DNA of 64,000 nucleotides, taken from Gammaproteobacteria bacterium. Its GTDB lineage: Bacteria; Pseudomonadota; Gammaproteobacteria; Pseudomonadales; Pseudohongiellaceae. A model generated the notes under the pieces. It saw nothing but the letters and a program-made list of their open reading frames with translations. It did no database searches and had not been told where the DNA came from. Below, piece by piece: positions 35,077-62,742 of this stretch (position 1 is the first letter of the stretch; every line of letters begins with the position of its first letter). A program made the position numbers and the translations under genes. The stretch is from positions 106 to 64,105 of the forward strand of contig JABIPQ010000024.1 of NCBI GenBank assembly GCA_018698975.1. Direction: 5' to 3'.

Positions 35077-36741
35077 ATGAGATATCCACCAGGTGTCAGT
35101 CAATCAGATTTTGACAGGGCAGTAAGGCAATTTGAGTCATCGATCGGAGCAGAGTGGGTGTTCACAGATGAAGCTGATGTTGACCTTTACCGTGATGCCT
35201 ATTCGCCATTGTGGGGTGAGGAAGAAGAGAAGATTCCATCCATTGCCCTGGCACCGCAATCTGCTGAAGAAGTGCAGTCCCTGATGGCTATTTGTAACGA
35301 ATTTCAAATTCCTGTTTACCCGGTATCAACAGGTAAAAACCTCGGCTATGGAGGTTCTGCTCCCGTACTCACCGGTAGTGTGGTACTGGATCTGAAACGC
35401 ATGAACCGGATTATTGAGGTGAATGAAGAAAACGCCTTTGCGCTTGTAGAGCCTGGCGTTTCCTATTTTGATTTATACAATTATATTCAGGAAAAGGGAC
35501 TCGATCTGTGGATAGACTGCCCGGATCCCGGCTGGGGTAGTCTGATTGGTAATTCACTGGACCATGGCGTGGGCTACACCGTTAATCCTTACCGTGATCA
35601 TTTCGAAGCCCATTGCGGTATGGAAGTGGTGCTGGCGGATGGCGATATTGTGCGCACTGGCATGGGTGCCTTACCCAATGCTGAAACCTGGCAGCAATAT
35701 CGCTGGGGCTATGGTCCCTGGATGGATGGTCTGTTTGCCCAGTCAAATTTTGGTGTCGTCACCAAGATGGGTTTTTGGTTAAGCCCGGCACCGGAAGCTT
35801 TTTGTTCTGGCTCCGTCCAGGTCATGAGATATAACGATGTGCATGAACTGGTGAGAATAACTGCAAAAATGATGTACAGCGGGATACTCAACTCCAATGC
35901 CGGTGTGCAGTCTCCGATGCAGTTTGCCATAGGGCAGAATCCGGAAATGCAGGAGCGCTATGAAAGGGCTAACGAGGAAGATATCCGGATTCTTGATGAG
36001 TTTGCCCGCAGCAACAATACCCCGTTCTGGAGTTCCCAGTTCAAATTTTATGGGCCACGGGAAATTGTCGACAGCTCCTGGGAATATGTGAAGAGACAAT
36101 TTGCCGACATTGATGGTGTACGTTACCAGGATCAGGAATCCCTCAATTTCCCGATGTCTTATGAAGAATTAATGCAGACAGCGGATGAAAATCACCTGGG
36201 TGTCCCTTCCATGTCGGTTTTCCAACTGGGTAATCGCTCCAATTTTAATCCCGCTGGCACCAACGGCCATCTGGGCTTCTCGCCGGTGGTACCCATGACC
36301 GGAGAGGCGGTACTGGAATCCAATAAAGTTCTGGTTCGGGTACTGAGAGAGATGGGTGGCAATACGGTATTCAATGTTCCCCCGTATTCCTACCATCAAC
36401 GCACATTCACCATTCTGGTAGGATTTACTGTCACCCGCGATGCTGATACCAATCGTAAAACCCGGGAAATTTTCCGTGAACTGGTCAAGGTCGCTGCAGA
36501 ACATGGCTGGGGCGAATATCGCACCCATACTGCCTTCATGGATGACTGTGCAGCGGCATATTCATTTAATGACAATGCGCTGTTGAGATTACAACAAACT
36601 CTCAAGGACGCCATTGATCCCAGGGGAATTATTTCTGCCGGACGCTATGGCATCTGGCCGAAGCATATTCGGGATACAGAAGGAAAAGGCGTTGCTACCA
36701 TCAAGGTGAGCAAAGAAAAGGAAGGAGACAGCAATGTCTAG
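35077..36741 (+). CDS. VAO/PCMH-family FAD-linked oxidoreductase (4-cresol dehydrogenase flavoprotein subunit-like)
   Basis: 554-aa ORF with an FAD-binding PCMH-type N-terminal domain (IPVYPVSTGKNLGYGGSAP...VVLDLKRMNRIIEVNEENAFALVEPGVSY). Its size and the overlapping cytochrome c gene match PchF-PchC flavocytochromes. Confidence 0.75.
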   Translation: MRYPPGVSQSDFDRAVRQFESSIGAEWVFTDEADVDLYRDAYSPLWGEEEEKIPSIALAPQSAEEVQSLMAICNEFQIPVYPVSTGKNLGYGGSAPVLTGSVVLDLKRMNRIIEVNEENAFALVEPGVSYFDLYNYIQEKGLDLWIDCPDPGWGSLIGNSLDHGVGYTVNPYRDHFEAHCGMEVVLADGDIVRTGMGALPNAETWQQYRWGYGPWMDGLFAQSNFGVVTKMGFWLSPAPEAFCSGSVQVMRYNDVHELVRITAKMMYSGILNSNAGVQSPMQFAIGQNPEMQERYERANEEDIRILDEFARSNNTPFWSSQFKFYGPREIVDSSWEYVKRQFADIDGVRYQDQESLNFPMSYEELMQTADENHLGVPSMSVFQLGNRSNFNPAGTNGHLGFSPVVPMTGEAVLESNKVLVRVLREMGGNTVFNVPPYSYHQRTFTILVGFTVTRDADTNRKTREIFRELVKVAAEHGWGEYRTHTAFMDDCAAAYSFNDNALLRLQQTLKDAIDPRGIISAGRYGIWPKHIRDTEGKGVATIKVSKEKEGDSNV

Positions 36742-37066
36742 GTCGTTTCTATTTCTGGTCTTGGCCCTGGTAAGTTGCGAACTATTTGCCCAGGTGGGTG
36801 ATCGTGCCCATGGCAAGGAAGTTTACGAACACTGGTGTTCATCCTGTCATGCTCCCGGAGCACGCAAGCATCCGGGTACATCAGCACTGGAATTTATCTA
36901 CAAGGGAGAAAAATCCGGAGTACTGGAAGAGCGACTCGACCTGACCCCGGAACTTGTCGCCTTGTTTGTTCGTAATGGTGTAAAAATTATGCCGCCTTTT
37001 CGCAAGACTGAAATCAGTGACAAGGATCTTTTAGATTTAGGGGCTTATCTTTCTCCACAAAGGTAA
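36734..37066 (+). CDS. Class-I c-type cytochrome (PchC-like subunit), secreted
   Basis: 110-aa ORF with signal peptide MSRSFLFLVLALVSCELFAQV, a single CSSCH heme-binding motif and a distal Met region (KIMPPF). It overlaps the flavoprotein gene by 8 nt. Confidence 0.8.
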   Translation: MSRSFLFLVLALVSCELFAQVGDRAHGKEVYEHWCSSCHAPGARKHPGTSALEFIYKGEKSGVLEERLDLTPELVALFVRNGVKIMPPFRKTEISDKDLLDLGAYLSPQR

Positions 37067-37172
37067 TTCTGCAGGTGCAGCCAGAGCCTCTCCTGAAAAT
37101 AATTAAGAGGAGTTTTTCATCAGCGCTTTATTTTGGAAATCCTGCGCAGTATTTATTTACTGCATCATTCTC

Positions 37173-38642
37173 TTGCTCATCGGTTACTTTGCTTCCCGGC
37201 GCATGCACGACATTCGTGACTACTATGCCGGCGGCAAGAAACTGGGCTTTATCAATGTAGCCTTTTCGGCCCGTGCCACGGGTGAGTCCGCCTGGCTTTT
37301 ACTCGGCCTGACCGGTACCGGTTTTGCTATTGGTTTGCAGGGACTCTGGATCGTGCTGGGCGAATTACTGGGTGTGGGGATTGCCTGGTTCTGGATGGCG
37401 AAACCCTTCAAACGGCTTACCGATCAGTATGACAGTGTCACTATCCCTGATTATCTTGAATCCCGCTTTCGTGATAAGGGACATGGGCTGCGCTTGATTG
37501 CTGCCGGTGCTCTGCTTGTCTTTGTGCCTATCTATGCCGGTTCTCAGGTGTTCGCCACCGGTAAAGCGTTCAATGCCTTTCTTGATATGAACCACTATTT
37601 GGGTGCCACCATCGGTTTCCTTGTTGTGCTTTTATATATCACCAAGGGCGGATTTATCGCCGTGGTATGGTCGGATGTATTCCAGGGACTGCTAATGGTC
37701 ACCGGACTGGTTGTGCTGCCCGTGATTGGTCTGCTGGAAATTGGCGGCACCAGTAATATTCTGGATACTCTGGGATCGGGGTTTTCCAGTCATTTAAGCT
37801 TAACAGCAGGGCAGGGCTGGACAACACTGGCGATATTTCAGACGCTTGGTTTTGCTGCCATTGGTATTGGTTTTCTGGGGTCGCCTCAGGTCTTTGTACG
37901 TTTTATTTCTATTCGTGATGAAGATCAAATCAACAAAGGGGCCGTTGTTGCATTAACCTGGACTCTTCTGGCAGATACCGGTGCGGTAATGATTGGGCTA
38001 GTAGGGCGAGGACTATTTACGGACGCTGATCTTGGTTTTGATCAGGATAATATTCTCCCCTATATGTCCCAGGCTCTGCTGCTGCCATTTTTTGCCGGGG
38101 TCTATATCGCCATGGTGCTCTCGGCCATCATGTCCACTATAGATTCCCTGTTGGTCGTTGCCTCCAGTTCCGCAGTTCGCGATTACTGGCAAAAGACTCG
38201 TCATCCGGAAATAAAAGATGCTGCTTTGGTAAAACTGAGTCAGCAAGTAACGCTGATTCTCGCGCTTATTTCTTTTGCTATCGGCATGGGCATCCTGCTT
38301 TACGATATTGAAAACGGGGTGTTCTGGATTATTATCTTTGGCTGGTCCGGAATTGCTGCCACATTCTGCCCGGTGGTGATACTTAGTTTGTGCTGGTCAA
38401 AACTCACAGCGCTTGGGGCCAAGTGCGCTATGGTGGCCGGGTTTCTTTCAACTATCCTGTTCAAGTTTGCGGTGCCGTCTCTGTTATTGGCACTGGGATG
38501 GCAAAATGGGGTGACTTATCTTGGTGCTCTTGACGTGCTTTTGCCAGCATTTCTGGTATCTGCATTAGTCGCTGTACTAGTGAGTGTTGCAGACAATAAA
38601 GGCCAGGCTTTGTTGCAAGGTATCCATGAAGAAGTGGCATGA
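37173..38642 (+). CDS. Sodium:solute symporter (SSF) family transporter; N-terminus probably extends to about 37119
   Basis: Polytopic 489-aa ORF (TTG start in the track) with SSF-like motifs (YYAGGKKLG, GESAWLLLGLTG). In-frame upstream codons encode the missing first TM helix (see finding). Confidence 0.85.
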   Translation: MLIGYFASRRMHDIRDYYAGGKKLGFINVAFSARATGESAWLLLGLTGTGFAIGLQGLWIVLGELLGVGIAWFWMAKPFKRLTDQYDSVTIPDYLESRFRDKGHGLRLIAAGALLVFVPIYAGSQVFATGKAFNAFLDMNHYLGATIGFLVVLLYITKGGFIAVVWSDVFQGLLMVTGLVVLPVIGLLEIGGTSNILDTLGSGFSSHLSLTAGQGWTTLAIFQTLGFAAIGIGFLGSPQVFVRFISIRDEDQINKGAVVALTWTLLADTGAVMIGLVGRGLFTDADLGFDQDNILPYMSQALLLPFFAGVYIAMVLSAIMSTIDSLLVVASSSAVRDYWQKTRHPEIKDAALVKLSQQVTLILALISFAIGMGILLYDIENGVFWIIIFGWSGIAATFCPVVILSLCWSKLTALGAKCAMVAGFLSTILFKFAVPSLLLALGWQNGVTYLGALDVLLPAFLVSALVAVLVSVADNKGQALLQGIHEEVA

Positions 38643-39640: not shown

Positions 39641-40732
39641 TTAGGGGGCCAATTTAGCCTTCACTTTCTCAAACACCTGATCCGGTGAAATTTCCTGTAG
39701 ACAACGATGTTGATGCAGGCAATGGCCCTTGTTACAGGCAGGATCACAGGTGAAATTTCCGCATACCACTTCGCTGTTTTTTTCCAGTGGGCCCCAGATG
39801 TCTTTGTTAGTTGGCCCCCATAAGACAATACCTTTTACACCAATCGCAGATCCCAGATGAAATGGACCACTATCGTTACCCACCATGAGGTCACACTGCT
39901 GTAAAAATTGCGCGAGTTCAGTCAATGAGAGTTTATTGCATAGATCAACAGGGCGTGCGTTGAGCTTATAATTATCAAGTTTTTGCACAATTTCACTATT
40001 AGCGGCTTGGTCAGCGCCACCTGCTCCCAATAAGACAGCTTGCAATCCTTCAGCGATAATTTTTTCGATCAAGGCCGCCATATGAGACAGCGGCCACTTT
40101 TTGTATTCCTTGGTAGCGCCTGCATGCAAGGCAATGGTGGGTCGATCGGGTTGCCATCCTGCCTGCTGCAATTTTTCTTGCAAGGGCGCAGATAAGTCAT
40201 CCAATGTCAGTTTGATATAAGCTTTTTCAGGCTCTGGCATGTTCAATGCCGCGAATACGTCATAGTAACTGTGCCAGCGGTGGGCTACTTCCAATGGCCG
40301 GTTTTCAAAGCGCAGAGGTAGGACGTGGTCATAATTTTTTTTGTGGCGTATTGAACTACAGCCGAGTTTAAAATCTGCGGCAGAAAAACGGGTCAGGTGA
40401 TTGGTGGCGGAATCTTCTTCAATATTAAAGGCTAGGTTAGCCTTGAAGGAGCGAATCTGTTTTAGACATTGCCAGTACAAGGCTATTTTTTTCAGAAAAT
40501 TTGCCTGGCCTATTTTTTTACGGGGAAAATAAATAAGACAGTCGTTTGGAAAACTGTTTTCACAAAGTGTGCGAAAACTTTCATCAATAACAATTTTCAA
40601 TTCAATATGCTGACTCTGGCAATATTCTGCATAGGCTTGCATCAGGCCACCGGCTAGCAAAAAATTGCCCAGGTATTTTGTTGGATTCACCAACAGCACA
40701 CGAGTCGGACTTGGTGGAAGAGGTTTATTCAC
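39641..40732 (-). CDS. Glycosyltransferase family 9 (heptosyltransferase-like)
   Basis: 363-aa ORF with the N-terminus RVLLVNPTKYLGNFLL and C-terminal LMVGNDSGPFHLGSAIGVKGIVLWGPT, typical of ADP-heptose:LPS heptosyltransferases. It overlaps the upstream HAD gene by 8 nt. Confidence 0.8.
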   Translation of the reverse strand: MNKPLPPSPTRVLLVNPTKYLGNFLLAGGLMQAYAEYCQSQHIELKIVIDESFRTLCENSFPNDCLIYFPRKKIGQANFLKKIALYWQCLKQIRSFKANLAFNIEEDSATNHLTRFSAADFKLGCSSIRHKKNYDHVLPLRFENRPLEVAHRWHSYYDVFAALNMPEPEKAYIKLTLDDLSAPLQEKLQQAGWQPDRPTIALHAGATKEYKKWPLSHMAALIEKIIAEGLQAVLLGAGGADQAANSEIVQKLDNYKLNARPVDLCNKLSLTELAQFLQQCDLMVGNDSGPFHLGSAIGVKGIVLWGPTNKDIWGPLEKNSEVVCGNFTCDPACNKGHCLHQHRCLQEISPDQVFEKVKAKLAP

Positions 40733-41573
40733 CGTCCTGGTAAAGTGCCATCAACGCACCGACATTGGCTACAGATATTTCCGGCCAGGTGGATTCGTCT
40801 CGTTCATCAAAGGCATTGGGACCGCCTGTGCCGGTATGCACATAAATAGAAAGTGCCCCATTGTCCTTTGCCATAGGCACTTCCAGGTCTGCGTCATCAC
40901 CCACTACTGCAAGTTCATTCACGGCAAGGCCCAGATGTCTTGCGGCAGCTTCAATGGCATAGCGAGACGGTTTGCCAAGTACTACTGCGTCTTTTCCGGT
41001 TAACGGTTTTAATGCCGCGGCCAGAGCGCAGGAAGTGCCAATACCAGGACCATTAGCCGTGGCAAAGAAAGGGACATCGGAGGCGGTATACAACCCGGCG
41101 CCATCGCGCACAGCAATCCAGGCATTTTCAATATCCTTGAAGCCAAACTCCCGATACCAGCCGATATAGACGGCATCTACAGGACCGGGATTGTCGATAC
41201 TGGAAAGCACAACTTCCAGTCCCAGATCTGCCAGGGGCTCCCATACGCCAGGACAGCCGAGCACCATAATGCGTTTATAACCTTGCTTCACCAGATAGTC
41301 AGCCGCAACACTGCTGGGGGTCATCATGGTATTGTTATCCATTGGAATACCAGCATCACTGAGCACTTTCACATAGTCTTTCGGCGAACGTGCGGTGCCG
41401 TTGGTCATCACCACATAGGGTATGCCTTTATCCTTCAGCAGGTTTATAAAGTCAGCTGCACCAGGCAAGGTATTCATATTATTGTTTTTCTTGTCGCCCA
41501 GGATGAGGGTGCCATCCATATCGAAAACAAATCCTTTTGTGTGTCTGAGTTTTTCAGTAATTTGCTGTGTCAT
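40725..41573 (-). CDS. HAD-superfamily hydrolase, subfamily IIA (NagD-like phosphatase)
   Basis: HAD motif I is FVFDMDGTLILGD. Also VVMTNGTARS and a distal VVGDDADLEV motif. 282 aa. Confidence 0.8.
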   Translation of the reverse strand: MTQQITEKLRHTKGFVFDMDGTLILGDKKNNNMNTLPGAADFINLLKDKGIPYVVMTNGTARSPKDYVKVLSDAGIPMDNNTMMTPSSVAADYLVKQGYKRIMVLGCPGVWEPLADLGLEVVLSSIDNPGPVDAVYIGWYREFGFKDIENAWIAVRDGAGLYTASDVPFFATANGPGIGTSCALAAALKPLTGKDAVVLGKPSRYAIEAAARHLGLAVNELAVVGDDADLEVPMAKDNGALSIYVHTGTGGPNAFDERDESTWPEISVANVGALMALYQDGE

Positions 41574-44693: not shown

Positions 44694-44756
44694 TAAGAAT
44701 ACAGAATACAGAATGCAGAATACAGAATGCAGAATGCAGAATACAGAATTCAGGAT
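44694..44756. repeat. Tandem heptamer array (RCAGAAT x about 8-9)
   Basis: Read directly: taagaat-acagaat-acagaat-gcagaat-acagaat-gcagaat-gcagaat-acagaat-tcaggat. The last unit contains the stop codon (44750-44752) of the carboxyltransferase gene. Confidence 0.95.
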
Positions 44757-46222
44757 TTACGACTCTGACGCAGGGTGAGGGAAAAATCGGGCTGCTTTAC
44801 CTCAAAATATGAGGTCTGCTTTTTTTCCTTCATCCTTTTTAACAATTTCAGTATTGGTGCAATTTCAGGGTTGTAGTGCAACTGGTGCGGCGCACGCGTG
44901 CGCATGGCATCGACCTGATCTTCGGGCATCACCGCACGCAGCAAAAACTCCTCATCAGACATGCTTTTTGAAAAACGCTTGCGCCTTTCCTTCAAGGTCA
45001 TGGTGATGGGTTCTTTTTCAATTTCCTTGGTGCGCGGCAATGACATGATTTTGTCCAATACCTCTGGATCAACAGGGGCAGTAGGTCGACCAAAGCGTCC
45101 CAGAACATAGCGAATAGCCTGATCGGGAATCTGTTCGTAACGCTCCTCTCCCATGACATTGAACATCGCCTGAGTAGTCACAATTTGCGGGAAGGGGGTA
45201 ACCATGATGGGAGAGCCTAATTCGGCGCGTACGCGTTCAACTTCTGCCATCACTTCATCAAATTTATGTTCAAGATTAAGTTCGCTCAACTGGCGTCTTG
45301 TGGTGGTGAGGACACCGCCGGCCACCTGGTGGCGCAGGTAGGACGCATCGTAAGCCTGAGGCTGTCCTGACGGTAAACCTTCTGCTTTGGCGAGTGCGAA
45401 ATAATAATCTTCCATAGCCTTGAGGGCTTGCTCATTAACATCAGCCTCATAACCATGGGTTTTCAGATTAGCGATGGTTTGTGATGCACAGGGCAGGGAA
45501 GAACCATGCGCCAGGGGGCCAACCGCCACATGCAAGGCATCAATACCAAGCTCGGCAGCTACTATGTAATTGAACTGTGATAAGCCAATGGTGCAATGGG
45601 AATGCAATTCCAGTGGCAGTTTGCCAATTTCCTTCTTCACTGCGGGAATCAGCGTGCGCGCTCTTTCCGGGGTAAGCAGTCCTGAAGGATCTTTAATATA
45701 GAGTAGATCAAAATCACCGGAAGCCGCAATTTGCCTGGCACAATTTGCATAAAAAGCATCGTCATGGACATCACTCAGGGTGAAGGTCAGTGCCGCCATA
45801 TTTTCTGCATCACCTTCTTCTTTCACAATGCGGGCTACCTGCATCAGCGCATCCATGTCGTGCATGGGGTCAAGCAGTACAAATCGGCCGATGCCATTTT
45901 TCATCAGAGTGCGGTAGGCCAGGCGCATGAAATCATGGTCAGCAGTCTCCCAGGAGATGAAGCGAAAGCCTGTAGAAATAAATTGCAAAGGCACTGTTGG
46001 TAGTGCCTGATGCATCAGACGAATGCGTTCCCAGGGATCATCCTGGTGATAACGCACACCCACTGCCATGTGAGTACTGGAAGTAAAATCGATGGCACGA
46101 AAGCCAACCCGTTCCATGAGAGGCGCCACCTGCATAATCTGCTTGGTGCCCATGCCGGTCATGCCCCACAAACTCTGGTTGCCATCGCGGATACTGACAT
46201 CGACCAGTTTTAATTCAGCCAT
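44750..46222 (-). CDS. Biotin-dependent carboxyltransferase subunit, 5S/pyruvate carboxylase-oxaloacetate decarboxylase alpha type (no biotinyl domain)
   Basis: The N-terminus KLVDVSIRDGNQSLWG (HMGL-like DRE-TIM), LYIKDPSGLLTP (the carbamyl-Lys context of PC/OadA) and LELHSHCTIGLS (HxH metal ligands). At 490 aa it ends without an E-[AV]-M-K-M biotinyl module. Confidence 0.85.
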   Translation of the reverse strand: MAELKLVDVSIRDGNQSLWGMTGMGTKQIMQVAPLMERVGFRAIDFTSSTHMAVGVRYHQDDPWERIRLMHQALPTVPLQFISTGFRFISWETADHDFMRLAYRTLMKNGIGRFVLLDPMHDMDALMQVARIVKEEGDAENMAALTFTLSDVHDDAFYANCARQIAASGDFDLLYIKDPSGLLTPERARTLIPAVKKEIGKLPLELHSHCTIGLSQFNYIVAAELGIDALHVAVGPLAHGSSLPCASQTIANLKTHGYEADVNEQALKAMEDYYFALAKAEGLPSGQPQAYDASYLRHQVAGGVLTTTRRQLSELNLEHKFDEVMAEVERVRAELGSPIMVTPFPQIVTTQAMFNVMGEERYEQIPDQAIRYVLGRFGRPTAPVDPEVLDKIMSLPRTKEIEKEPITMTLKERRKRFSKSMSDEEFLLRAVMPEDQVDAMRTRAPHQLHYNPEIAPILKLLKRMKEKKQTSYFEVKQPDFSLTLRQSRKS

Positions 46223-47594
46223 TGGTAGTCTTCTCCAGCGATACAGTTTCCAGCAACTTGTTCAAAAACAGGCTATCTACAGCGCCTTGGGTGAATTCTT
46301 CAGAGGCCATAATAGCCCGATGTAGAATTATATTATTTTCAATGCCGTCAATCTGACAGTGCTCAAGCGCCTTTTTTAGTAAGCTCATTGCTGTGGCTCT
46401 ATCTTCTCCCCAGACAATTAATTTTCCTAACAAAGAGTCATAGTAGGGAGGTACGACACTGCCGGTTTCAATATGACTGTCTATTCTGATGCCGGGGCCT
46501 GCAGGAAACTGAGCAGCGCTCACAGTACCTGGACTGGGTTGAAAATTATTCATGCAGTCTTCGGCATTGAGACGACATTCAATAGCATGTCCGTTAAAAC
46601 AGACCTCTTCCTGACTCATTCCCAGAGGCCTGCCTTCAGCAATACGAATTTGCTGTGCAATCAGATCGAGTCCGGTAATTTCTTCGGTTACGGGATGTTC
46701 CACCTGGATGCGGGCATTCATTTCCAGAAAATAAAAGCTCGCTCTTTGGGTATCAACAAGAAATTCTACAGTGCCGGCACCGCGATAGCGCAGGTGTTTT
46801 GCGAATGCGACAGCAGCATTTTCCATATGCTCTCTCAGTGCCGGGTCCAGATCAGGCGCCGGGGCTTCCTCGACCAGCTTTTGATAACGGCGCTGAATGG
46901 AGCAGTCGCGTGTGCCCAAATGTATGATGTTGTCTCCATCACCAAGTACCTGAACTTCTACATGCCTTCCACGTTCTACAAAGCATTCCAGATACAGGCG
47001 CTCATCGTTAAAGGCATTTTCAGCTTCCGCTCGTGCCAGGGTCATGGATGCAGCGAGGGTGCTTTCGTCATGAACTACCTGCATACCACGACCGCCACCG
47101 CCACCAACGGCTTTAATCAATACCGGATAGCCGATTTCTGCAGCCAGTTTTTCGGCTTCTCCTGCATCGGCCACGGCTCCGCCTGGTACCAGTGGCAGGG
47201 CAGCAGCAAGCGCATTTTCCCGGGCTTTGAGTTTGTCTCCGATAGCATCTAATTGCTCAATAGTAGGACCGATAAAAATGATGCCGGCTTTTTCACTGGC
47301 TTTTGCCAGAGCGGCATTCTCGGATAAAAAACCATAACCGGGATGGATGGCATCGGCTTTTACTTGCACAGCTGCTTTTATGACAGCCTCAACATTCAGG
47401 TAACTTTGTAATGACGGCGGTGGGCCAATATTGATGACCTGGTCAGCCAGTCTGGCAGGGAGGGAATCCAGGTCAGCCTGGGAGGAAGCAAGTACGCTTT
47501 CTATGCCAAGTTTCTGACAAGTACGAATTATGCGGGCGGCAATTTCACCCCGGTTGGCAATCAACAGGCGGTTTATATTTTTAACAGGATTCAT
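46215..47594 (-). CDS. Biotin carboxylase (ATP-grasp) subunit
   Basis: INRLLIANRGEIAARIIRTC, the glycine loop KAVGGGGGRGMQVV, and EMNARIQVEHPVTE. 459 aa. It overlaps the downstream carboxyltransferase start by 8 nt. Confidence 0.93.
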   Translation of the reverse strand: MNPVKNINRLLIANRGEIAARIIRTCQKLGIESVLASSQADLDSLPARLADQVINIGPPPSLQSYLNVEAVIKAAVQVKADAIHPGYGFLSENAALAKASEKAGIIFIGPTIEQLDAIGDKLKARENALAAALPLVPGGAVADAGEAEKLAAEIGYPVLIKAVGGGGGRGMQVVHDESTLAASMTLARAEAENAFNDERLYLECFVERGRHVEVQVLGDGDNIIHLGTRDCSIQRRYQKLVEEAPAPDLDPALREHMENAAVAFAKHLRYRGAGTVEFLVDTQRASFYFLEMNARIQVEHPVTEEITGLDLIAQQIRIAEGRPLGMSQEEVCFNGHAIECRLNAEDCMNNFQPSPGTVSAAQFPAGPGIRIDSHIETGSVVPPYYDSLLGKLIVWGEDRATAMSLLKKALEHCQIDGIENNIILHRAIMASEEFTQGAVDSLFLNKLLETVSLEKTTNG

Positions 47595-48061
47595 TCAGAT
47601 GGTCTCACCCGCATCAGCAGCTGACCTTTTTCTACAAACTGCGCATCCACCGCGTGAAATTCCATGACTTCACCGCTGACGCCGGCAGGGATTGAATTCA
47701 TCAGTTTCATTACTTCGATAATAGCAATCACGGTATTGGGTTTGACAGATGAGTTCACAGTAACAAAAGGTTCTGCACCGGGTTTCGGGGAGCTGTAAAA
47801 AGTTCCTACCATAGGCGCGCGCACATCGAGCAAGCCTTCCTCAGTGGCAACAGGCTCACTTTGTTCCTCACTGGCTGCTAACGAAGCAAGCCTTGTCTCT
47901 TGTCTCTTGCCTCTTGTCTCTGTCTCCTGAACCCAGCCACTCTTGTCAGCGCTACGCACAAGGCAGAGGGTAAAGCGATCCGTTTCAAGAGTGAGTTCGT
48001 CGTATTCGGTATCATCTAATAAAAGCAGGATTTCCTGAACATCTTCATGGCTTAAACTCAT
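47591..48061 (-). CDS. Biotin carboxyl carrier protein (BCCP)
   Basis: 156-aa ORF with a C-terminal biotinyl domain and the biotinylation motif IIEVMKLMNSI. There are 4-nt ATGA overlaps with both neighbours. Confidence 0.88.
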   Translation of the reverse strand: MSLSHEDVQEILLLLDDTEYDELTLETDRFTLCLVRSADKSGWVQETETRGKRQETRLASLAASEEQSEPVATEEGLLDVRAPMVGTFYSSPKPGAEPFVTVNSSVKPNTVIAIIEVMKLMNSIPAGVSGEVMEFHAVDAQFVEKGQLLMRVRPSE

Positions 48062-49116
48062 TTCTTCTGACCTCCCATCACATTAAAAATGTGATCAAAA
48101 GCCCGGGCGGCAGGTTTGGCAACCGGGGCCTTGTCTTTCAGGGCCCATACGGTTTCGGGACGGCTTTGCAGTAGCAGAACACCCTCGCCCTGAAGATCCT
48201 TTTCGTGAGGTAAGGCCCATTCGATATCCTGTGGGCAGCCATAATGTTTCTCCACGCGTCTGGCGATACTAACCAGTTCCTTTAATTCTTCGTTGCTAAG
48301 ACAAGTGATTTTTTGTCGCTCTTCACTTACAGGCATTTCAATGATGCCACCGTTTTCATCAGGGAGATGTTCAATGGCCTTGTTGGCAATATTCTTATTA
48401 CTGATTTCACTGGTGATTTTATTAACAACAAACTTATCTGGTGTCACTTCGCCACTGACGATACTGGAACCCAGACCCCAGCTAGCCTCTATGGTGATTA
48501 CAGATTTGTCACCGCTTGTCGGACTGCGGGTAAACATGACACCGGAGCAGCGGGAATTGACCATGATCTGCACCACTACGGCCATTGCCAGTTGGTCTTC
48601 AGGCAGGCCCAGGCGCAGTCGATAGGCAACGGATTCAGGATTATAGAGACTGGCCCAGCACTTCCTGACTGAATCCAGTAATTGCGCGTCTCCTTTTTGC
48701 CACAGGTAAGTGTCCTGTAATCCGGCAAAACTGGCTTCTTCACTATCTTCGCTGGTGGCACTTGAACGCACTGCAACTGGCGTATCTGCACCAATGGTCT
48801 GGTAAGCGTCGCTAAGATGCTGGATCAGTTCCGGGGGCAGGGGGGCCTGTTCTACCAGCTTCCTTATGTTTGCGGTTACCTGGTCAATTACCTTGTGGTC
48901 TTCAGGATCCAGGTTTGCTATTTGTTGGCGAATCCCATGTTGTGCGTCAAGCAAGTCCAGGAAATCAATGAATGCGTCAGTAGTGACCACAAAGCCATCA
49001 GGAACCTGAATGCCAGCGTTGCATAATTCACCCAGACTACCTCCTTTTCCGCCTACGCGGGGCCGGTCGGTAAGGGAAATGTCTTTGAACCAAAGTATAT
49101 GTTTTTCGGAATTCAT
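48058..49116 (-). CDS. PEP synthase/PPDK N-terminal ATP-grasp (nucleotide-binding) domain protein, phenylphosphate synthase beta-like
   Basis: LWFKDISLTDRPRVGGKGGSLGELCNAGIQVPDGFVVTTDAF and VAVRSSATSEDSEEASFAGLQDTYL match the PPDK_N domain. The protein stops at 352 aa, with no His-swivel or PEP-binding domain. Confidence 0.85.
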   Translation of the reverse strand: MNSEKHILWFKDISLTDRPRVGGKGGSLGELCNAGIQVPDGFVVTTDAFIDFLDLLDAQHGIRQQIANLDPEDHKVIDQVTANIRKLVEQAPLPPELIQHLSDAYQTIGADTPVAVRSSATSEDSEEASFAGLQDTYLWQKGDAQLLDSVRKCWASLYNPESVAYRLRLGLPEDQLAMAVVVQIMVNSRCSGVMFTRSPTSGDKSVITIEASWGLGSSIVSGEVTPDKFVVNKITSEISNKNIANKAIEHLPDENGGIIEMPVSEERQKITCLSNEELKELVSIARRVEKHYGCPQDIEWALPHEKDLQGEGVLLLQSRPETVWALKDKAPVAKPAARAFDHIFNVMGGQKK

Positions 49117-49148
49117 GTGTTCTTCAAATGTAGAGGAGTGTTTTAGAT

Positions 49149-49234
49149 GGATAAAGGATAAAGGAAAAAGGGATTAATCTTTCAGGATATAAGTAAACCG
49201 CACTCCTTTATCCTTTTTCCTTTATCTTTTATCC
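49149..49234. repeat. Intercistronic heptamer-built hairpin (GGATAAA-type units)
   Basis: 49149-49171 (ggataaa-ggataaa-ggaaaaa-gg) pairs with 49212-49234 at 22 of 23 positions by my alignment, with a 40-nt loop. It lies 2 nt from the stop codon of the 604-aa gene. Confidence 0.8.
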
Positions 49235-49236
49235 GG

Positions 49237-51051
49237 TTATTCAAGAATCGTAACAACCCCACTATCCCCATCAACCCGTATGCGCTGACCATTCTTAATG
49301 CGCTTGGTGGCTTCGCCGGTGCCTACTACAGCGGGCATGCCGTATTCGCGGGCGACAATAGCCATATGGGACATGGTGCCGCCAATATCCGACACTGCTG
49401 CTGCGATTTTGCTGAACAGCGGGCTCCAGCTTGGATGAGTAATTGGGCAGACAAGAATCTCCCCTTCATTTATTTCCCCGAAATCAGTGATGCCGCGTAG
49501 TACTCTTGCCACACCTTCCACGCAGCCTGCTGAGGCAGCGTAGCCGCGAATTTCATTCTCATTTTCAACTGATGGTGCAGCCCAGCTGTGCAGGGTTTCG
49601 GTAGTAATACCCCAAAGCATTTGCAGGGCTGGATCTTCTATATTATCTGGCATAGGGCCTATAGCTGGCGGTGCCTGCCATTCCTTGAGTACCTCAAGCA
49701 TACGTCTGCGTTCGGCAATAATCGGCGGCCAGTAACCCTGGTTCACCGGTCTGGAGCCAGCAGCCCAGCTATTCATCAGATTTCCCAGAGTAAGATTTAC
49801 TTCCGTATGGTGCATTTGGAAAATGTCATCGCTTTTTTCAATGATGCCATGCATCTCAAGCAGGTCGCCAAATTCACGAATTTTGTTGAAGAAACTGGTG
49901 GTCAGCCAATGCTCACAGTAAAACTTGTGGTCTTCTACATAAGGAAAAACAAGATGGCTAACGGCCAGCATCTGATCAAAAGCTCCCTTTTCTTCATCAG
50001 TGTTTAGCAGGTCCCGATATTCACTGATTATTCTCTCACGTTCGGCACGTAATTCTTCAGTTGGCCGTTCCAGGCTGACCCCTTTCTTGACCAGTTCAAT
50101 ATAGTGAGGCAGGGCAGAGAGTGGAACTGCCAGGTCATCATTCCAGCTGCGTTCAAAATGATAAAAGCCGTCACCGATGCTGATGTTAAACCAGGGATCT
50201 CTGGATTCTGCGAGCGCGTCGAGCCACTGTTTGCCGGCATCGCCTTTGGCTTCAACAGCAGGAAGGATGACATCCGGGTTACCGTCTGAAGTGAAAACAT
50301 CCTCGATGCCCAGCTTTACTGCGAGTTTTGCCAGCTTCTTCAGTTCGTCATCGGGGCGGAACATCAGTACATCAATACCCGCCACCATGCGCGCCACAGT
50401 CTGGTCGGTGATTTCCGGAAAAGCCTGCTTGCAGAACTGGAAGAACACTACATAGGCACCATAACCCAGCATCAGCATTTCGAAATGGTGCTGCCACATG
50501 ATGGAATATTTTTCCAGAACCTCATTGTAGGTTTCACGCAGATAATGATTCTGGGCAATGCCTTTGGCTTCCTTGACTACAGCTTCGTCTTCAAATTCAG
50601 GCAGCTCCGGTATTTTAATGGCATTCATTTCCTTGATGAGCTGGCCCATACGCTTTTCCCACTGGACATAGATCTCATCCCAGTTTTCATAATAGTGGCC
50701 GGCCCGTTCCTGGAAAATAGCAAGGCGCTGTTGGATTTCCTCCGGATCAGTCGCGGTATTGGCTGTGATATAAATTCGGCCGTTGATGCAGCGGTAATCA
50801 ATCCCCTTGCCTGTGGGAAAAGCAAAGACCCGGTTCACATAGGCGCCCATGGCATGATAGGCAGACTCTGCAGTGATCATGTCAAAAGCTGACATTGGCT
50901 CGGAAAAATGCATGGAATTATAGAACCAGAAGCGCTCGTCATCTTCAGGCTGCACCTTCGTATAATAAGGATACATTTCGCCCCAGTTCTCGGCGCCAGG
51001 GACATGTCCGATATCAGTCGGTAAGGGAAATGGGTTTTTCCTGTCGCTCAT
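49237..51051 (-). CDS. PEP-utilizing-enzyme mobile (phosphohistidine swivel) domain protein with large unassigned N-terminal domain, phenylphosphate synthase alpha-like
   Basis: The C-terminal ~90 aa, GEILVCPITHPSWSPLFSKIAAAVSDIGGTMSHMAIVAREYGMPAVVGTGEATKRIKNGQRIRVDG, form the swivel domain with its catalytic His (TMSH). The N-terminal ~500 aa show no PEP/pyruvate TIM-barrel motifs that I recognise. Confidence 0.8.
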   Translation of the reverse strand: MSDRKNPFPLPTDIGHVPGAENWGEMYPYYTKVQPEDDERFWFYNSMHFSEPMSAFDMITAESAYHAMGAYVNRVFAFPTGKGIDYRCINGRIYITANTATDPEEIQQRLAIFQERAGHYYENWDEIYVQWEKRMGQLIKEMNAIKIPELPEFEDEAVVKEAKGIAQNHYLRETYNEVLEKYSIMWQHHFEMLMLGYGAYVVFFQFCKQAFPEITDQTVARMVAGIDVLMFRPDDELKKLAKLAVKLGIEDVFTSDGNPDVILPAVEAKGDAGKQWLDALAESRDPWFNISIGDGFYHFERSWNDDLAVPLSALPHYIELVKKGVSLERPTEELRAERERIISEYRDLLNTDEEKGAFDQMLAVSHLVFPYVEDHKFYCEHWLTTSFFNKIREFGDLLEMHGIIEKSDDIFQMHHTEVNLTLGNLMNSWAAGSRPVNQGYWPPIIAERRRMLEVLKEWQAPPAIGPMPDNIEDPALQMLWGITTETLHSWAAPSVENENEIRGYAASAGCVEGVARVLRGITDFGEINEGEILVCPITHPSWSPLFSKIAAAVSDIGGTMSHMAIVAREYGMPAVVGTGEATKRIKNGQRIRVDGDSGVVTILE

Positions 51052-51254: not shown

Positions 51255-51701
51255 TTACCCTGTTTTCGAACCGTCATCAATGGGGAGATCGCCGGCATCA
51301 GAAGAGCCCGATTTATTGCTATTTCTGTAAACATCAAGAATATGATCAAAGGCTTCTTTCAGGGTGATCTCCCTGAAATCTGAAAATTCCCCGGCATCCA
51401 TAAAAACACCATGTTCTTCGCATACTTCATACCGGATATGAGCTTGTTTGGTGTCATTAACGGATTCCATAGGTTTCATGCAACGCGGGCAATGAATATT
51501 GGTGATTTCGTTATAAATCTTGCCGATGTTTTCATCGCCATCATCAAGCGTAACCGAGGTCCATTCATATTTCAGTTTATCAGCTTCACCCAGATCAAAC
51601 CAGAGGCCTGCACAGCGTTCACATTTATCAATGGCGACTTCGCCGGATTGAGTGAGCACTTTGTGTTCCTGCATTACAGAATGGCATTTCGGACAGAGCA
51701 C
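51255..51701 (-). CDS. Tandem zinc-ribbon (TFIIB-type zf) domain protein
   Basis: There are two modules: CPKCHSVM...CERCAGLWFD and CPRCMKPM...CEEHGVFMD. 148 aa. Confidence 0.6.
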   Translation of the reverse strand: MLCPKCHSVMQEHKVLTQSGEVAIDKCERCAGLWFDLGEADKLKYEWTSVTLDDGDENIGKIYNEITNIHCPRCMKPMESVNDTKQAHIRYEVCEEHGVFMDAGEFSDFREITLKEAFDHILDVYRNSNKSGSSDAGDLPIDDGSKTG

Positions 51702-61737: not shown

Positions 61738-62742
61738 TCAGGGATTGATGACAGTTCTGAAACCAATATGAGAAGTACCCAGTCCTTTGCTTTGTGATTG
61801 CCTTGCTTCAGGCCGATAACGCATGCAGTAGTTAGGCGCACAAAGATAGGAACCGCCCTTGATAACTGCAACGGGCTCACCGGGCTGGTAGGGGTCATAG
61901 CCTTGCGGATATTTCTCCTTGTCGGCAAAGCCATGGCTTGAAAACCAGGGGGTTTCAGTCCATTCCCAGACATTACCGATAAGATCATACAGTCCCAGAT
62001 TGTTTGCACTATAGCAACCTACCGGGGCGGTCCCGGTAAAACCATCCTGAGCATCATGCTGAAAAGGAAACAAACCTTGCCAGGTGTTGGATTGAAAGGT
62101 CCCGGCTGAATCCCTGCGTAAACTGCTCTGGGCGGCATATTCAAACTGTGTTTCTGTGGGCAGGGAATGTCCTTTCCAGGCTGCGTATGCCTGGGCATCT
62201 TCATAGGCGATATGGACAACGGGGTGTTGCTGCCTGCTTTCAAGATTTGACCCTGGACCTTCCGGTTGCTGCCAGTTGGCACCGTTCATGAAAAGCCACC
62301 AGCCAGCAAAAGGATTTACTGGTTCATCGCTGACATGGGGGGCGAAAACTGCAGAACCGGGAATGAATTCGCCGGTGGATGAATTTTCAATTCCTCGTTC
62401 TGCCAGCGTGATATAACCAGTGGCGTCAACAAATTCGGCAAACTCGTTATTGGTAACTTCATGCTGTGCCATCCAGAAGTCATTTACAGATGTTGCAAAT
62501 GCCGGGCCCTCTTCAAAATAGGTTCCTTCGGCGCCCATGGTGAACTCGCCGCCGGTCACCAGAATCATGCCAGGATACGGAGAAGCAAGAGTCGGAATCT
62601 CGTTACACTGCATGGCCAGGACATTAATATTAATTCCGGGTACTGATGTTTTTGATGCCAGCCAGGCCAGGACTATTACAATAGCAAGGCCGGAACCAGC
62701 GCCAAAAATTAATATTTTTTTACTGTTGGTAAATGACGTCAT
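61738..62742 (-). CDS. Formylglycine-generating enzyme (SUMF1/FGE family), membrane-anchored or secreted
   Basis: FGE-sulfatase domain motifs (HPVVHIAYEDAQAYAAWKG, GNVWEWTE, GGSYLC, R-rich C-terminus). An N-terminal hydrophobic segment. It is adjacent to a sulfatase gene. Confidence 0.85.
   Translation of the reverse strand: MTSFTNSKKILIFGAGSGLAIVIVLAWLASKTSVPGININVLAMQCNEIPTLASPYPGMILVTGGEFTMGAEGTYFEEGPAFATSVNDFWMAQHEVTNNEFAEFVDATGYITLAERGIENSSTGEFIPGSAVFAPHVSDEPVNPFAGWWLFMNGANWQQPEGPGSNLESRQQHPVVHIAYEDAQAYAAWKGHSLPTETQFEYAAQSSLRRDSAGTFQSNTWQGLFPFQHDAQDGFTGTAPVGCYSANNLGLYDLIGNVWEWTETPWFSSHGFADKEKYPQGYDPYQPGEPVAVIKGGSYLCAPNYCMRYRPEARQSQSKGLGTSHIGFRTVINP

Follow-up and report, generated by a model that had tools for sequence, protein, structure and literature searches.

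Which pathway is encoded by a locus in which genes for a split dikinase adjoin those for a three-component biotin carboxylase, and is that pathway new? The locus lies in a stretch of 64 kb that was analyzed as a whole and is referred to here as the window. It had been described in an initial annotation as five minus-strand genes forming a candidate new system. All five are ORFs placed exactly as that annotation had them, and the coordinates confirm its overlaps of 4, 4, and 8 nt among the last four genes, the gene for the biotin carboxyl carrier protein (BCCP) overlapping each neighbor by 4 nt. A Pfam search matched its domain assignments for the five proteins, and a motif scan of these proteins recovered every motif it had listed. 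Its gene count was incomplete, as a sixth component, a HAD phosphatase, was overlooked. The system is also not new, because the gene order is that of acvABCDEF and hpeHICBAD, which were characterized in 2022; the window holds a further copy of this known system, in a marine gammaproteobacterium. With a probability of roughly 0.85, the locus is an Acv/Hpe-type module for 4-hydroxyphenyl methyl ketone catabolism. Candidate substrates are the lignin-type phenolic ketones 4-hydroxyacetophenone, acetovanillone, and acetosyringone, as well as closely related compounds.

Table 1. Components of the locus and their positions in the window
Feature	Size	Position	Strand	Basis
AcvA/HpeH-like dikinase subunit	604 aa, 68.8 kDa	49237..51051	-	ORF and homology
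Intergenic spacer between both kinase genes	120 nt	49117..49236	-	long hairpin
AcvB/HpeI-like ATP-grasp (PPDK_N) dikinase subunit	352 aa, 38.7 kDa	48058..49116	-	PF01326
Biotin carboxyl carrier protein, AcvC/HpeC-like	156 aa, 17.2 kDa	47591..48061	-	PF00364, TIGR00531
Biotin carboxylase, AcvD/HpeB-like	459 aa, 49.5 kDa	46215..47594	-	PF00289, PF02786, PF02785
5S/PycB-type carboxyltransferase, AcvE/HpeA-like	490 aa, 55.4 kDa	44750..46222	-	PF02436, PF00682
NagD-type HAD-IIA phosphatase, AcvF/HpeD-like	282 aa, 30.0 kDa	40725..41573	-	PF13344, PF13242, TIGR01460

The sole Pfam domain in the 604-aa protein was PF00391 (residues 527-598), and NCBIfam PRK08296.1-5 was matched over the full length with 803 bits. 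This C-terminal swivel domain is of the phosphohistidine type, with the pattern S-x-x-G-G-x-x-x-H in SDIGGTMSH. The swivel motif GGTMSHMAIVAREYGMP was located at residue 557 by the motif scan, and His562 is the predicted catalytic histidine. The initial annotation had asked whether the N terminus contains a PEP/pyruvate TIM barrel, and none was found by Pfam, AF2, or Foldseek. The PEP/pyruvate-binding domain PF02896 was absent from both kinase proteins in the Pfam search, an AF2 model of modest quality (pLDDT 63) was all-alpha over residues ~100-490, and the only full-length Foldseek matches of this model were rifampin phosphotransferase (RPH) structures (5FBT and 5HV1, E~3e-12). The substrate domain is thus modeled as alpha-helical and RPH-like, without a PEP TIM barrel; the N-terminal domain of HpeH is RPH-like as published. 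RPH has the same ATP-grasp, helical substrate-binding, and swivel His modules as the window pair but differs in being one polypeptide with a fused ATP-grasp domain, in its low identity to the window proteins (~17-18%), and in having an antibiotic as substrate and no carboxylase partner. PF01326 spans the 352-aa protein (E=4e-105), the top PDB match of which, 9GOJ (E=6e-86), outranked all PEP synthases. This entry is the crystal structure of HpeI (PMC12167813), and the 46% identity over 337 aa is a direct comparison with a characterized protein.

The BCCP matched TIGR00531 (100 bits) and carries the biotinyl-Lys motif EVMKLMN at residue 116, and the biotin carboxylase matched NF006367 (609 bits) and has GGGGGRGM at residue 164. 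In the carboxyltransferase, RDGNQS, KDPSG, and HSH lie at residues 12, 177, and 207, the metal ligands D13, K177, H207, and H209 are retained, and no biotinyl domain was found by Pfam. The protein scored under the curated cut-off of every PycB/OadA/5S NCBIfam model (306 bits for PRK09282, against a cut-off of 402 bits). In the alignment, ISTGFR stands where pyruvate-type enzymes have LLRGQN, the Arg of which we take to be the residue that binds the pyruvate carboxylate in pyruvate carboxylase structures. This replacement, a W insertion, KDP, and T.RRQL make up a signature that was common to 26 of 26 kinase-linked carboxyltransferases, including that of the Hpe-type locus L008, and was missing from PycB, OadA, and 5S. 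On these residues, the 490-aa protein is assigned to the kinase-linked subfamily. It has the fold and metal ligands (Asp, carbamylated Lys, and His-x-His) of PycB, OadA, and 5S, and its partner biotin carboxylase is a standard one, as in PycA/PycB; the 490-aa protein differs from those carboxyltransferases in the missing fused biotinyl domain, the replaced LLRGQN, and the extra conserved Trp and Arg-Arg. Public source annotations carry the names "pyruvate, water dikinase," "oxaloacetate decarboxylase alpha subunit," and "2-oxoglutarate carboxylase."

The HAD phosphatase gene is located 3.2 kb downstream of the core genes, beyond inserted genes of which two are on the opposite strand, and is grouped with a heptosyltransferase gene in another transcription unit. 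Its product is 66% identical to that of the in-operon sixth gene of the related locus L003, a higher value than the 54% between the in-operon HADs of L001 and L003, and the displaced arrangement was also found in L005-L007. These comparisons identify it as the predicted ortholog of the system's sixth gene, displaced from the operon.

Synteny of the Pps-like and carboxylase genes in other genomes, another check proposed at the outset, was present across several phyla. Among the matches listed, the kinase-carboxylase order recurs in >20 species and spans Alpha-, Beta-, and Gammaproteobacteria, Actinomycetota, and Acidobacteriota, and the full six-gene operon occurs in relatives at 69-75% identity. 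In a neighbor-joining tree of 49 PpsA-like proteins among the matches listed (200 bootstraps), the window protein fell within a 24-member clade (bootstrap 193/200), with identities of 49-90% inside the clade and 28-46% outside. Every clade locus with enough downstream sequence, among these matches, has BCCP(-BC)-CT-HAD genes (BC, biotin carboxylase; CT, carboxyltransferase). L001 joins the window, L003, L005, and L007 in a subclade (200/200), of which it is the earliest branch (69% identical). The neighbors of the L001 operon, namely LigAB, Amidohydro_2, and a GCV_T demethylase-like gene, are typical of a lignin-monomer context.

The acvABCDEF operon was described in Sphingobium sp. (lignivorans) SYK-6, where a phosphorylation-carboxylation pathway was demonstrated genetically (Higuchi et al. 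2022, bioRxiv 10.1101/2022.04.28.489975). By the published description, its order is PpsA-like, PpsB-like, BCCP, BC, 5S-type CT, and NagD-like HAD; all six protein types are shared with the window, the first five in identical order. SYK-6 itself was likened by description, and L088 served as the literature-anchored acv reference. The CT of L088 is identical to a protein of Altererythrobacter atlanticus, which has a conserved acv operon (Higuchi et al., bioRxiv 10.1101/2022.04.28.489975), and the genes of L088 follow the acvABCDEF order, with an AraC regulator and with LigAB close by. Over full lengths, the window proteins were 54, 53, 45, 59, 52, and 39% identical to those of L088 (A to F). 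The window's PpsA-like protein shares one carboxylase-linked clade with sphingomonad loci, and the CT and swivel signatures (SDIGG[ST]MSH.AIVAREYG) are held in common. Unlike acv, the window has a displaced phosphatase gene, a structured spacer between the acvA-like and acvB-like genes, and a small Zn-ribbon protein gene in the upstream place of AcvR (AraC-type), and its marine gammaproteobacterial host carries the operon without lignin-catabolic neighbors.

In Rhodococcus rhodochrous GD02, ketone phosphorylation followed by carboxylation was proven biochemically for HpeHI, HpeCBA, and HpeD, encoded by hpeHICBAD (Dexter et al. 2022 PNAS, PMC9618137; Dexter et al. 2025 JBC, PMC12167813). The HpeHI kinase yields AMP and Pi, HpeCBA takes phosphorylated aryl ketones only and spends one ATP (to ADP), and the HpeD phosphatase favors the carboxylated product (PMC9618137, PMC12167813). 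Components, order, and subunit masses match those of the window by published description, HpeI by sequence. Hpe is nevertheless the more distant branch: the window is 41-48% identical to L008, HpeH-type kinases fall outside the Acv-like clade in the tree, the residue preceding the catalytic His is Cys in HpeH and Ser in the window, and hpeEF (CoA ligase and hydrolase), which extend the hpe operon, are not in the window. The initial view that Pps-type kinases partner with UbiD-type and not biotin enzymes has been outdated since 2022, and its link of XccABC to 4-hydroxyacetophenone in Aromatoleum aromaticum EbN1 was correct (PMC9618137). XccABC, likened by description, is a biotin-dependent 4-hydroxyacetophenone carboxylase of three components, encoded near a PchCF-like hydroxylase and clustered with Pps-type kinase genes that are hpeHI homologs (PMC9618137, discussion); the p-ethylphenol/4-hydroxyacetophenone pathway there runs anaerobically. 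The PchFC-like pair that had been noticed nearby lies at 35077-37066, 7.7 kb off. The top PDB match of the PchF-like protein was p-cresol methylhydroxylase (E=1e-177), and a cytochrome c gene is next to it; this linkage was not conserved in any other operon copy examined.

By homology with HpeHI and AcvAB, the 352-aa subunit would give ATP to His562 of the 604-aa subunit. The pyrophosphorylated His562 would shed the gamma-phosphate and use the beta-phosphate to phosphorylate the phenolic OH of a substrate bound in the RPH-like domain, the net products from ATP being AMP, Pi, and an aryl phosphate. As for HpeCBA, the biotin carboxylase would load a CO2 group on the BCCP biotin (ATP to ADP), and the CT would transfer the carboxyl to the acetyl methyl of the phosphorylated ketone, giving 4-phospho-aryl-beta-ketopropionate, which the phosphatase would dephosphorylate as HpeD does. 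The beta-keto acid would then be converted to 4-hydroxybenzoate, vanillate, or syringate and acetyl-CoA by genes elsewhere in the genome; the 64-kb window has no CoA ligase, thiolase, or hydrolase for a downstream pathway and no VceAB-like genes, vanillate demethylase, or ring-cleavage dioxygenase. This lack counts against the module reading, as do the housekeeping surroundings, in which no AraC-type regulator is encoded, and the separate transcription unit of the phosphatase gene. Phenolic-OH phosphorylation preceding biotin-dependent carboxylation of a methyl ketone had been suggested in the initial annotation, and by analogy with Hpe and Acv, for which it is proven, this part would stand. 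Its alternative of enol phosphorylation, modeled on acetone carboxylase, is unsupported because the characterized enzymes phosphorylate the phenolic hydroxyl.

Pps-type kinases for phenol, cresol, and hydroxyphenylethanones are 40-46% identical to each other, and therefore sequence does not fix the exact substrate; identity of the window to characterized or literature-anchored members is only 39-59%. Identical machinery and chemistry might serve, in a marine Pseudohongiellaceae-type clade, a physiological substrate other than the lignin monomers studied. It could be a different 4-hydroxyphenyl ketone or a phenolic of algal or tyrosine origin, which the cells would scavenge at low concentrations. 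We consider this unlikely, although the well-supported subclade, identities of only ~50% to the reference operons, and the view that kinase specificity determines pathway specificity speak for it, as does the sub-micromolar Km of HpeHI, which fits scavenging. The surroundings speak for it as well, since the operons of the window, L003, L005, and L007 are flanked by housekeeping rather than aromatic-catabolism genes. L001 is the exception, and its lignin-monomer context at the earliest branch argues against another substrate, as do CT signature residues equal to those of Acv-like and Hpe-type enzymes and neighboring genes that point to no alternative.

An ordinary PEP-pyruvate-oxaloacetate node, with a permuted or split PEP synthase and a three-subunit pyruvate or 2-oxoglutarate carboxylase, would account for the matches of PPDK_N and swivel to PEP synthase models, for those of the CT to PycB/OadA/5S models and structures, and for the source annotations. 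It is nevertheless highly improbable and effectively refuted by the absence of PF02896, the helical, RPH-like N-terminal 500 residues, the CT motif and scores, and the complete PPDK (PPDK_N, swivel, and PEP-utilizers_C) already present at 59058-61649, where the initial annotation had placed it; the restriction of the HpeCBA homolog to phosphorylated aryl ketones also speaks against it. We give almost no credence to a kinase for phenol (phenylphosphate synthase) or for 4-cresol (CreHI-type) adjoining an unrelated biotin carboxylase by chance. The two-subunit architecture is identical to that of PpsA/PpsB, PpsA and CreH likewise have Ser before the catalytic His, and PpsAB(C) of Thauera aromatica and Geobacter metallireducens is a homologous dikinase with an identical His-swivel ping-pong mechanism. 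However, PpsAB(C) belongs to another kinase clade (<=46% identity to the window), and its UbiD-type partner carboxylates the ring, whereas the window's biotin-enzyme partner would target the side-chain methyl. The recurring gene order, the overlaps of the last four genes, the placement of the kinase in the carboxylase-linked clade and not in those without a carboxylase, and the absence of UbiD-type carboxylase and cre-type P450 genes from the 64-kb window all argue against chance and leave the Acv/Hpe-type module as the preferred reading.

The spacer between the kinase genes folds as a hairpin with a 22-bp stem (-30.9 kcal/mol, z=-4.2), which is not a classical terminator because it has no T-tract. 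Its arms are inverted arrays of the heptamer GGATAAA (TRF). This pattern was found nowhere else in the 64-kb window, and the inverted arrays were not present in L003; they were present, with a differing loop, in L005 and L007 (84-90% relatives).

ORF and Pfam searches placed the five minus-strand genes of the operon exactly where the initial annotation had drawn them and bore out all of the domains assigned to them. Each motif that it quoted occurs at one position, and the coordinates agree with gene overlaps of 4, 4, and 8 nt. The mechanism it had read from the sequence was right, judged by homology with the characterized Acv and Hpe enzymes. Its claim of a new system did not hold, since a split Pps-type kinase combined with a three-component biotin carboxylase was published in 2022, and its view that Pps-type enzymes partner with UbiD-type carboxylases only has been superseded by the Acv/Hpe studies. 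From sequence comparison, the operon is predicted to be a further member of the known Acv/Hpe hydroxyphenylethanone system, in a marine gammaproteobacterium and with its phosphatase gene displaced.

Positions of the operon and of other features in the window and at related loci
Feature	Position	Strand	Description
Five-gene operon	44750-51051	minus	604-aa PpsA-like protein, 352-aa ATP-grasp protein, BCCP, biotin carboxylase (BC), 490-aa carboxyltransferase (CT)
Spacer between the two kinase genes	49117-49236 (L005:11816-12011, L007:11816-12049)		120 nt; inverted GGATAAA heptamer arrays, 22-bp stem, z=-4.2
CTTGTCT tandem repeat	47892-47926		7 nt, 5 copies; within BCCP coding sequence
ATTCTG[TC] tandem repeat (gene strand)	44696-44753		7 nt, 8.3 copies, 90% matches; begins at CT stop codon
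Small protein gene	51255-51701 (L005:9406-9846, L007:9385-9804)	minus	N-terminal TFIIB-type zinc ribbon; directly upstream of operon, same strand
NagD-type HAD-IIA phosphatase gene	40725-41573	minus	3.2 kb downstream of operon, other transcription unit
Three co-directional genes	35077-38642	plus	PCMH/vanillyl-alcohol-oxidase-family flavoprotein (35077-36741), cytochrome c (8-nt overlap), sodium:solute symporter
543-aa ORF	33200-34831	minus	class-1 dihydroorotate dehydrogenase domain (2-265) fused to PyrK-like FAD/NAD electron-transfer domain (305-540)
Large and small ORFs	1-30600	plus	1360, 1414, 698, 436, and 332 aa, and many small
Complete PPDK	59058-61649		carries PF02896
Sulfatase and formylglycine-generating-enzyme (FGE-sulfatase) genes	61738-63991	minus	adjoining
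TPP-dependent enzymes	L001:3216-5141, L007:20500-21815, L054:1604-3169		adjoin Acv-like operons of different lineages
GMC-family oxidoreductases	L001:17154-18704, L003:18355-19983		adjoin Acv-like operons

The acvABCDEF operon of Sphingobium sp. SYK-6 codes in turn for a PpsA-like protein, a PpsB-like protein, BCCP, BC, a PycB-like CT, and a NagD-like HAD phosphatase. Growth on acetovanillone and on acetosyringone requires every one of the six genes, and AcvAB is the enzyme that phosphorylates these compounds (Higuchi et al. 2022, bioRxiv 10.1101/2022.04.28.489975). The hpeHICBAD genes of Rhodococcus rhodochrous GD02 are homologous and syntenic: HpeHI adds a phosphate to 4-hydroxyacetophenone and to acetovanillone, carboxylation by HpeCBA is limited to phosphorylated ketones and converts one ATP to ADP per turnover, and HpeD removes the phosphate from the carboxylated product, while the xcc carboxylase genes of EbN1 cluster with hpeHI homologs (PMC9618137). 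The structure of HpeI (PDB 9GOJ) appeared in 2025, together with modeling of HpeH as a rifampin phosphotransferase (RPH)-like substrate domain plus a swivel domain (PMC12167813). A second 2025 study examined 17,510 representative genomes and found AcvAB/HpeHI homologs together with the carboxylase and phosphatase genes in 25 of them.

The 604-aa protein was assessed by the features published for the PpsA/HpeH-type subunit (PMC12167813). It has one Pfam match, the PF00391 swivel (PEP-utilizing mobile) domain at residues 527-598, its swivel motif SDIGGTMSH fits the published T/S-x-x-G-G-x-x-x-H with Met at -2, and it matches NCBIfam PRK08296 over its full length. Because pLDDT was just 63, which is moderate, and the alignment was shallow, its AlphaFold (AF2) model was used for fold class and the RPH match only, without residue-level inference. 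Residues ~100-490 were nearly all helical in this model, and the only full-length Foldseek matches were RPH structures (E~3e-12, ~620 aligned columns, 17-18% identity). The combination of an RPH-like substrate domain and a swivel domain is the same as that published for HpeH. The ATP-grasp subunit is encoded separately and immediately downstream, as for the PpsB/HpeI type. This stand-alone PPDK_N protein (PF01326) had HpeI (9GOJ) as its top PDB match, above all PEP synthases (E=6e-86; 46% identity over 337 residues).

BCCP, a complete BC, and a 5S-type CT follow directly after the kinase genes as three separate, co-oriented components, in the order of acvCDE and hpeCBA. The masses of window subunits A to F are 68.8, 38.7, 17.2, 49.5, 55.4, and 30.0 kDa, close to the published 71.2 (tagged), 40.6, 17.4, 49.3, 57.4, and 30.2 kDa of their Hpe counterparts. 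By Pfam, the CT is PYC_OADA/HMGL-like and carries no biotinyl domain, and it scored under all curated PycB, OadA, and 5S cut-offs of NCBIfam. Alignment with PycB (5KS8), OadA (2NX9), and 5S (1S3H) showed that the metal ligands are kept (Asp13, Lys177 in KDPSG, and His207/His209). Where pyruvate-type CTs have LLRGQN, the window CT has ISTGFR; after RD..QS it has NQSLWGMTG for HQSL(x)-ATR, the carbamyl-Lys motif is KDP for KDM, and after the GG loop TTTRRQL stands for [ST]N..[NS]QL. In pyruvate carboxylase structures, pyruvate is bound through its carboxylate by the LLRGQN arginine. A signature derived in the present analysis, not taken from the literature (RDGNQSLW, STGFRF, KDPSG, and T.RRQL), was common to 26 of 26 kinase-linked CTs examined, the Hpe-type CT of the Microbacterium locus L008 included, and was present in none of the three pyruvate-type references (PycB, OadA, and 5S). 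By sequence, the window CT thus belongs to the kinase-linked subfamily, and it is predicted to be no pyruvate enzyme. The arginines newly conserved in the signature, R84 in GFRF and R307/R308 in TTRRQL, are candidate aryl-phosphate binders; such binding would explain the strict need of HpeCBA for a phosphorylated substrate. Written as LLRGQN to [ST]TG[FLM]RF, an inserted Trp, KDP, and T.RR[QH]L, the signature could mark the family simply.

In acv and hpe, the phosphatase is the sixth gene of the operon, whereas in the window the NagD-type gene lies in another transcription unit. By exact-protein look-up, both the 75% relative (L003) and the 69% relative (L001) have a six-gene operon with the HAD-IIA gene last. 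The HAD-IIA protein of the window is 66% identical to that of L003, which exceeds the 54% between the in-operon proteins of these two relatives, and it is therefore predicted to be the displaced acvF/hpeD ortholog; functional coupling to the operon is plausible. In the 84-90% relatives, the CT and HAD genes have between them a SnoaL-like gene and a CNNM gene on the opposite strand, and in L005-L007 the HAD gene is displaced as in the window.

Seeded with HpeI and the window protein, a scan across GTDB gave at least 80 loci, and the loci listed were searched with the six window proteins. Among them, BCCP(-BC)-CT-HAD followed in the same order, wherever the contig was long enough, each PpsA-like protein at least 49% identical to that of the window, and the carboxylase-bearing loci belonged to Alpha-, Beta-, and Gammaproteobacteria, Actinomycetota, Thermoleophilia, and Acidobacteriota. 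The initial annotation had allowed that kinase and carboxylase genes might not be syntenic elsewhere; their order recurs in loci of several phyla. At 46% identity or less, the carboxylase was missing at the listed loci, with the sole exception of L008, which is 66% identical to HpeI and was taken as Hpe-type. An NJ tree of 49 PpsA-like proteins, which contains no AcvA, HpeH, PpsA, or CreH reference sequences, recovered a carboxylase-linked clade that included the window (193 of 200 bootstraps) and the window's marine subclade (200 of 200), and L008 branched apart. Among the loci listed, identity to the window protein was 49-90% inside the carboxylase-linked clade versus 28-46% outside.

Locus L088 was used as the Acv reference because its CT is identical to a protein of Altererythrobacter atlanticus, which Higuchi et al. 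name for a conserved acvABCDEF operon (bioRxiv 10.1101/2022.04.28.489975). In L088 the acvABCDEF order is kept, an AraC regulator is present, and LigAB is near. Identities between the window and L088 were 54, 53, 45, 59, 52, and 39% for A to F. For A to E, L088 and L008 were 44, 42, 49, 48, and 44% identical, and the window and L008 44, 41, 45, 48, and 43%. Because of these values, the window operon is placed on the Acv-like side, its apparent distance to Hpe being equal to that of the Acv reference operon. One of the 75% and 69% relatives has its operon flanked by genes for LigA/LigB, GCV_T (demethylase-like), Amidohydro_2, and MFS transporters. The TPP-dependent and GMC-family enzymes that adjoin Acv-like operons may carry out accessory steps (e.g., side-chain alcohol oxidation or C-C cleavage) in related phenolic pathways. 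Six Acv-like operons (L018, L021, L023, L035, L058, and L061) have no BC gene, and the CT gene comes directly after the BCCP gene; BC function is presumably supplied in trans, e.g., by AccC.

Other identities for these genes were weighed and rejected. A PEP synthase or PPDK identity failed because the PF02896 PEP/pyruvate-binding TIM barrel, which is present in the complete PPDK correctly reported in the initial annotation, was absent from both kinase subunits by Pfam, and no TIM-barrel fold was among the Foldseek matches of the 604-aa model. The N-terminus of the 604-aa protein, where a PEP/pyruvate-binding region had been thought possible, is helical and RPH-like. An identity as two-subunit pyruvate carboxylase (PycA/PycB), OadA, or 5S was rejected on the sub-threshold CT scores, the replaced LLRGQN, and the missing fused biotinyl domain; the reading of the whole operon as a split PEP synthase plus pyruvate carboxylase was likewise rejected. 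A phenylphosphate synthase/carboxylase would act on phenol; the kinase falls outside the clades without biotin carboxylases and no UbiD-family gene was found among the annotated neighbors of the operon in the window, which argues against this identity. Also rejected was the reading that a kinase for phenol or cresol lies beside a biotin carboxylase by chance.

As an Acv/Hpe-type system, the operon would act as follows. The beta-phosphate of ATP would pass, by way of the ATP-grasp subunit and the swivel His562, to the phenolic OH with release of AMP and Pi; BC, BCCP, and CT would add a carboxyl group to the acetyl methyl carbon of the phosphorylated ketone with conversion of ATP to ADP; and the HAD protein would take the phosphate off the beta-keto acid. 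Higuchi et al. proposed dephosphorylation before carboxylation (bioRxiv 10.1101/2022.04.28.489975), and Dexter et al., working with purified enzymes, showed that carboxylation comes first (PMC9618137); we adopted the latter order. Phosphorylation, carboxylation, and the growth requirement on hydroxyphenylethanones are established for HpeHI/HpeCBA/HpeD and AcvABCDEF only and would extend to the window by homology. The assignment is based on which genes are present and in what order, on subfamily signatures and clade membership, and on synteny across phyla; a hydroxyphenylethanone is the predicted substrate. Pps-type kinases of differing substrates are 40-46% identical to each other (PMC12167813; bioRxiv 10.1101/2022.04.28.489975), so that the substrate cannot be read from ~54% identity to an Acv-like kinase. 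Little is new for the mechanism, since the chemistry was solved in 2022-2025.

The heptamer arrays between the two kinase genes are also found in that spacer in the 84-90% relatives, with a different loop. They are absent from the 75% relative, in which the spacer is 15 nt, and the inverted pattern occurs nowhere else within the 64-kb window. The hairpin is no classical terminator because a T-tract is missing; the spacer may serve as an array for protein binding or as an element in mRNA processing or stability. Between 40 and 52 kb, scans for promoters and terminators gave no more sites than shuffled sequence, and the only Rfam matches on the operon region (sub-threshold miRNA-hairpin matches on the intergenic stem-loop) were considered spurious. 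The CTTGTCT repeat encodes part of a low-complexity linker preceding the biotinyl domain; a 7-nt period inside a reading frame is unusual, and the linker could be prone to frameshifts or length changes. The repeat after the CT gene was not found in L005 or L007. Sphingomonads have the AraC-type AcvR upstream of acv, whereas the window has the zinc-ribbon protein gene in that place, as do the 84-90% relatives. Neither downstream pathway genes nor an AraC-type regulator were found in the window.

A Pfam census of 147 flanking ORFs at 20 Acv-like loci revealed no strongly enriched family and no dominant partner, only scattered aromatic-pathway families and several alcohol dehydrogenases; flanking ORFs were picked naively in high-GC loci, and the signal was probably diluted. 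Because no partner family dominates, the six genes behave as a self-contained cassette. The PchF/PchC-like pair noted previously is present 7.7 kb from the operon. Its flavoprotein had p-cresol methylhydroxylase (9H40) as the top PDB match (E=1e-177), and the three genes look like those for a flavocytochrome 4-alkylphenol hydroxylase and a transporter dedicated to it. As in EbN1, the pair could supply the pathway from 4-alkylphenols; it could also make the alcohol precursors of hydroxyphenylethanones. No other operon copy examined had a PchF/PchC homolog within 10 kb, and the pair is therefore not counted in the system.

By ORF sizes only, the plus-strand genes at one end of the window suggest the rpoBC, str, S10, spc, and alpha ribosomal-protein region, which would put a catabolic operon near the most conserved core of the chromosome. 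The housekeeping context is common to the 84-90% relatives. We consider it unlikely that in the marine Pseudohongiellaceae-type subclade (the window, L003, L005, and L007) the Acv-type cassette has turned core-chromosomal, as a high-affinity scavenger of a marine phenolic ketone beyond the lignin monomers studied. This idea draws on the few kb that separate the operon from the presumed ribosomal-protein/rpoBC region, the lack of a dedicated regulator or downstream genes nearby, the uncoupled phosphatase, and the conserved heptamer spacer. If true, phospho-activated biotin carboxylation would be a routine oceanic route for the turnover of phenolic dissolved organic matter.

Public protein data from genomes and metagenomes are rich in close homologs, and the cassette is conserved in at least five bacterial classes; a pathway for lignin monomers (hydroxyphenylethanones) first reported as rare is now extended to marine Gammaproteobacteria. 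Public annotation of the Acv-like proteins is misleading: AcvA-like proteins are named "pyruvate, water dikinase," "PEP-utilizing enzyme," or, in NCBIfam, "hypothetical protein PRK08296," and the CT "oxaloacetate decarboxylase alpha subunit," "2-oxoglutarate carboxylase," or even "biotin carboxyl carrier protein." The remaining value of the operon lies in the wide environmental distribution, the annotation errors exposed, a practical CT signature, and candidate phosphate-binding arginines.

Two further features of the window lie outside the operon. The 543-aa ORF joins dihydroorotate dehydrogenase and PyrK-like parts that are normally two separate subunits. The sulfatase and FGE genes are kept as a pair in L005-L007, which fits a marine polysaccharide-degrading lifestyle.
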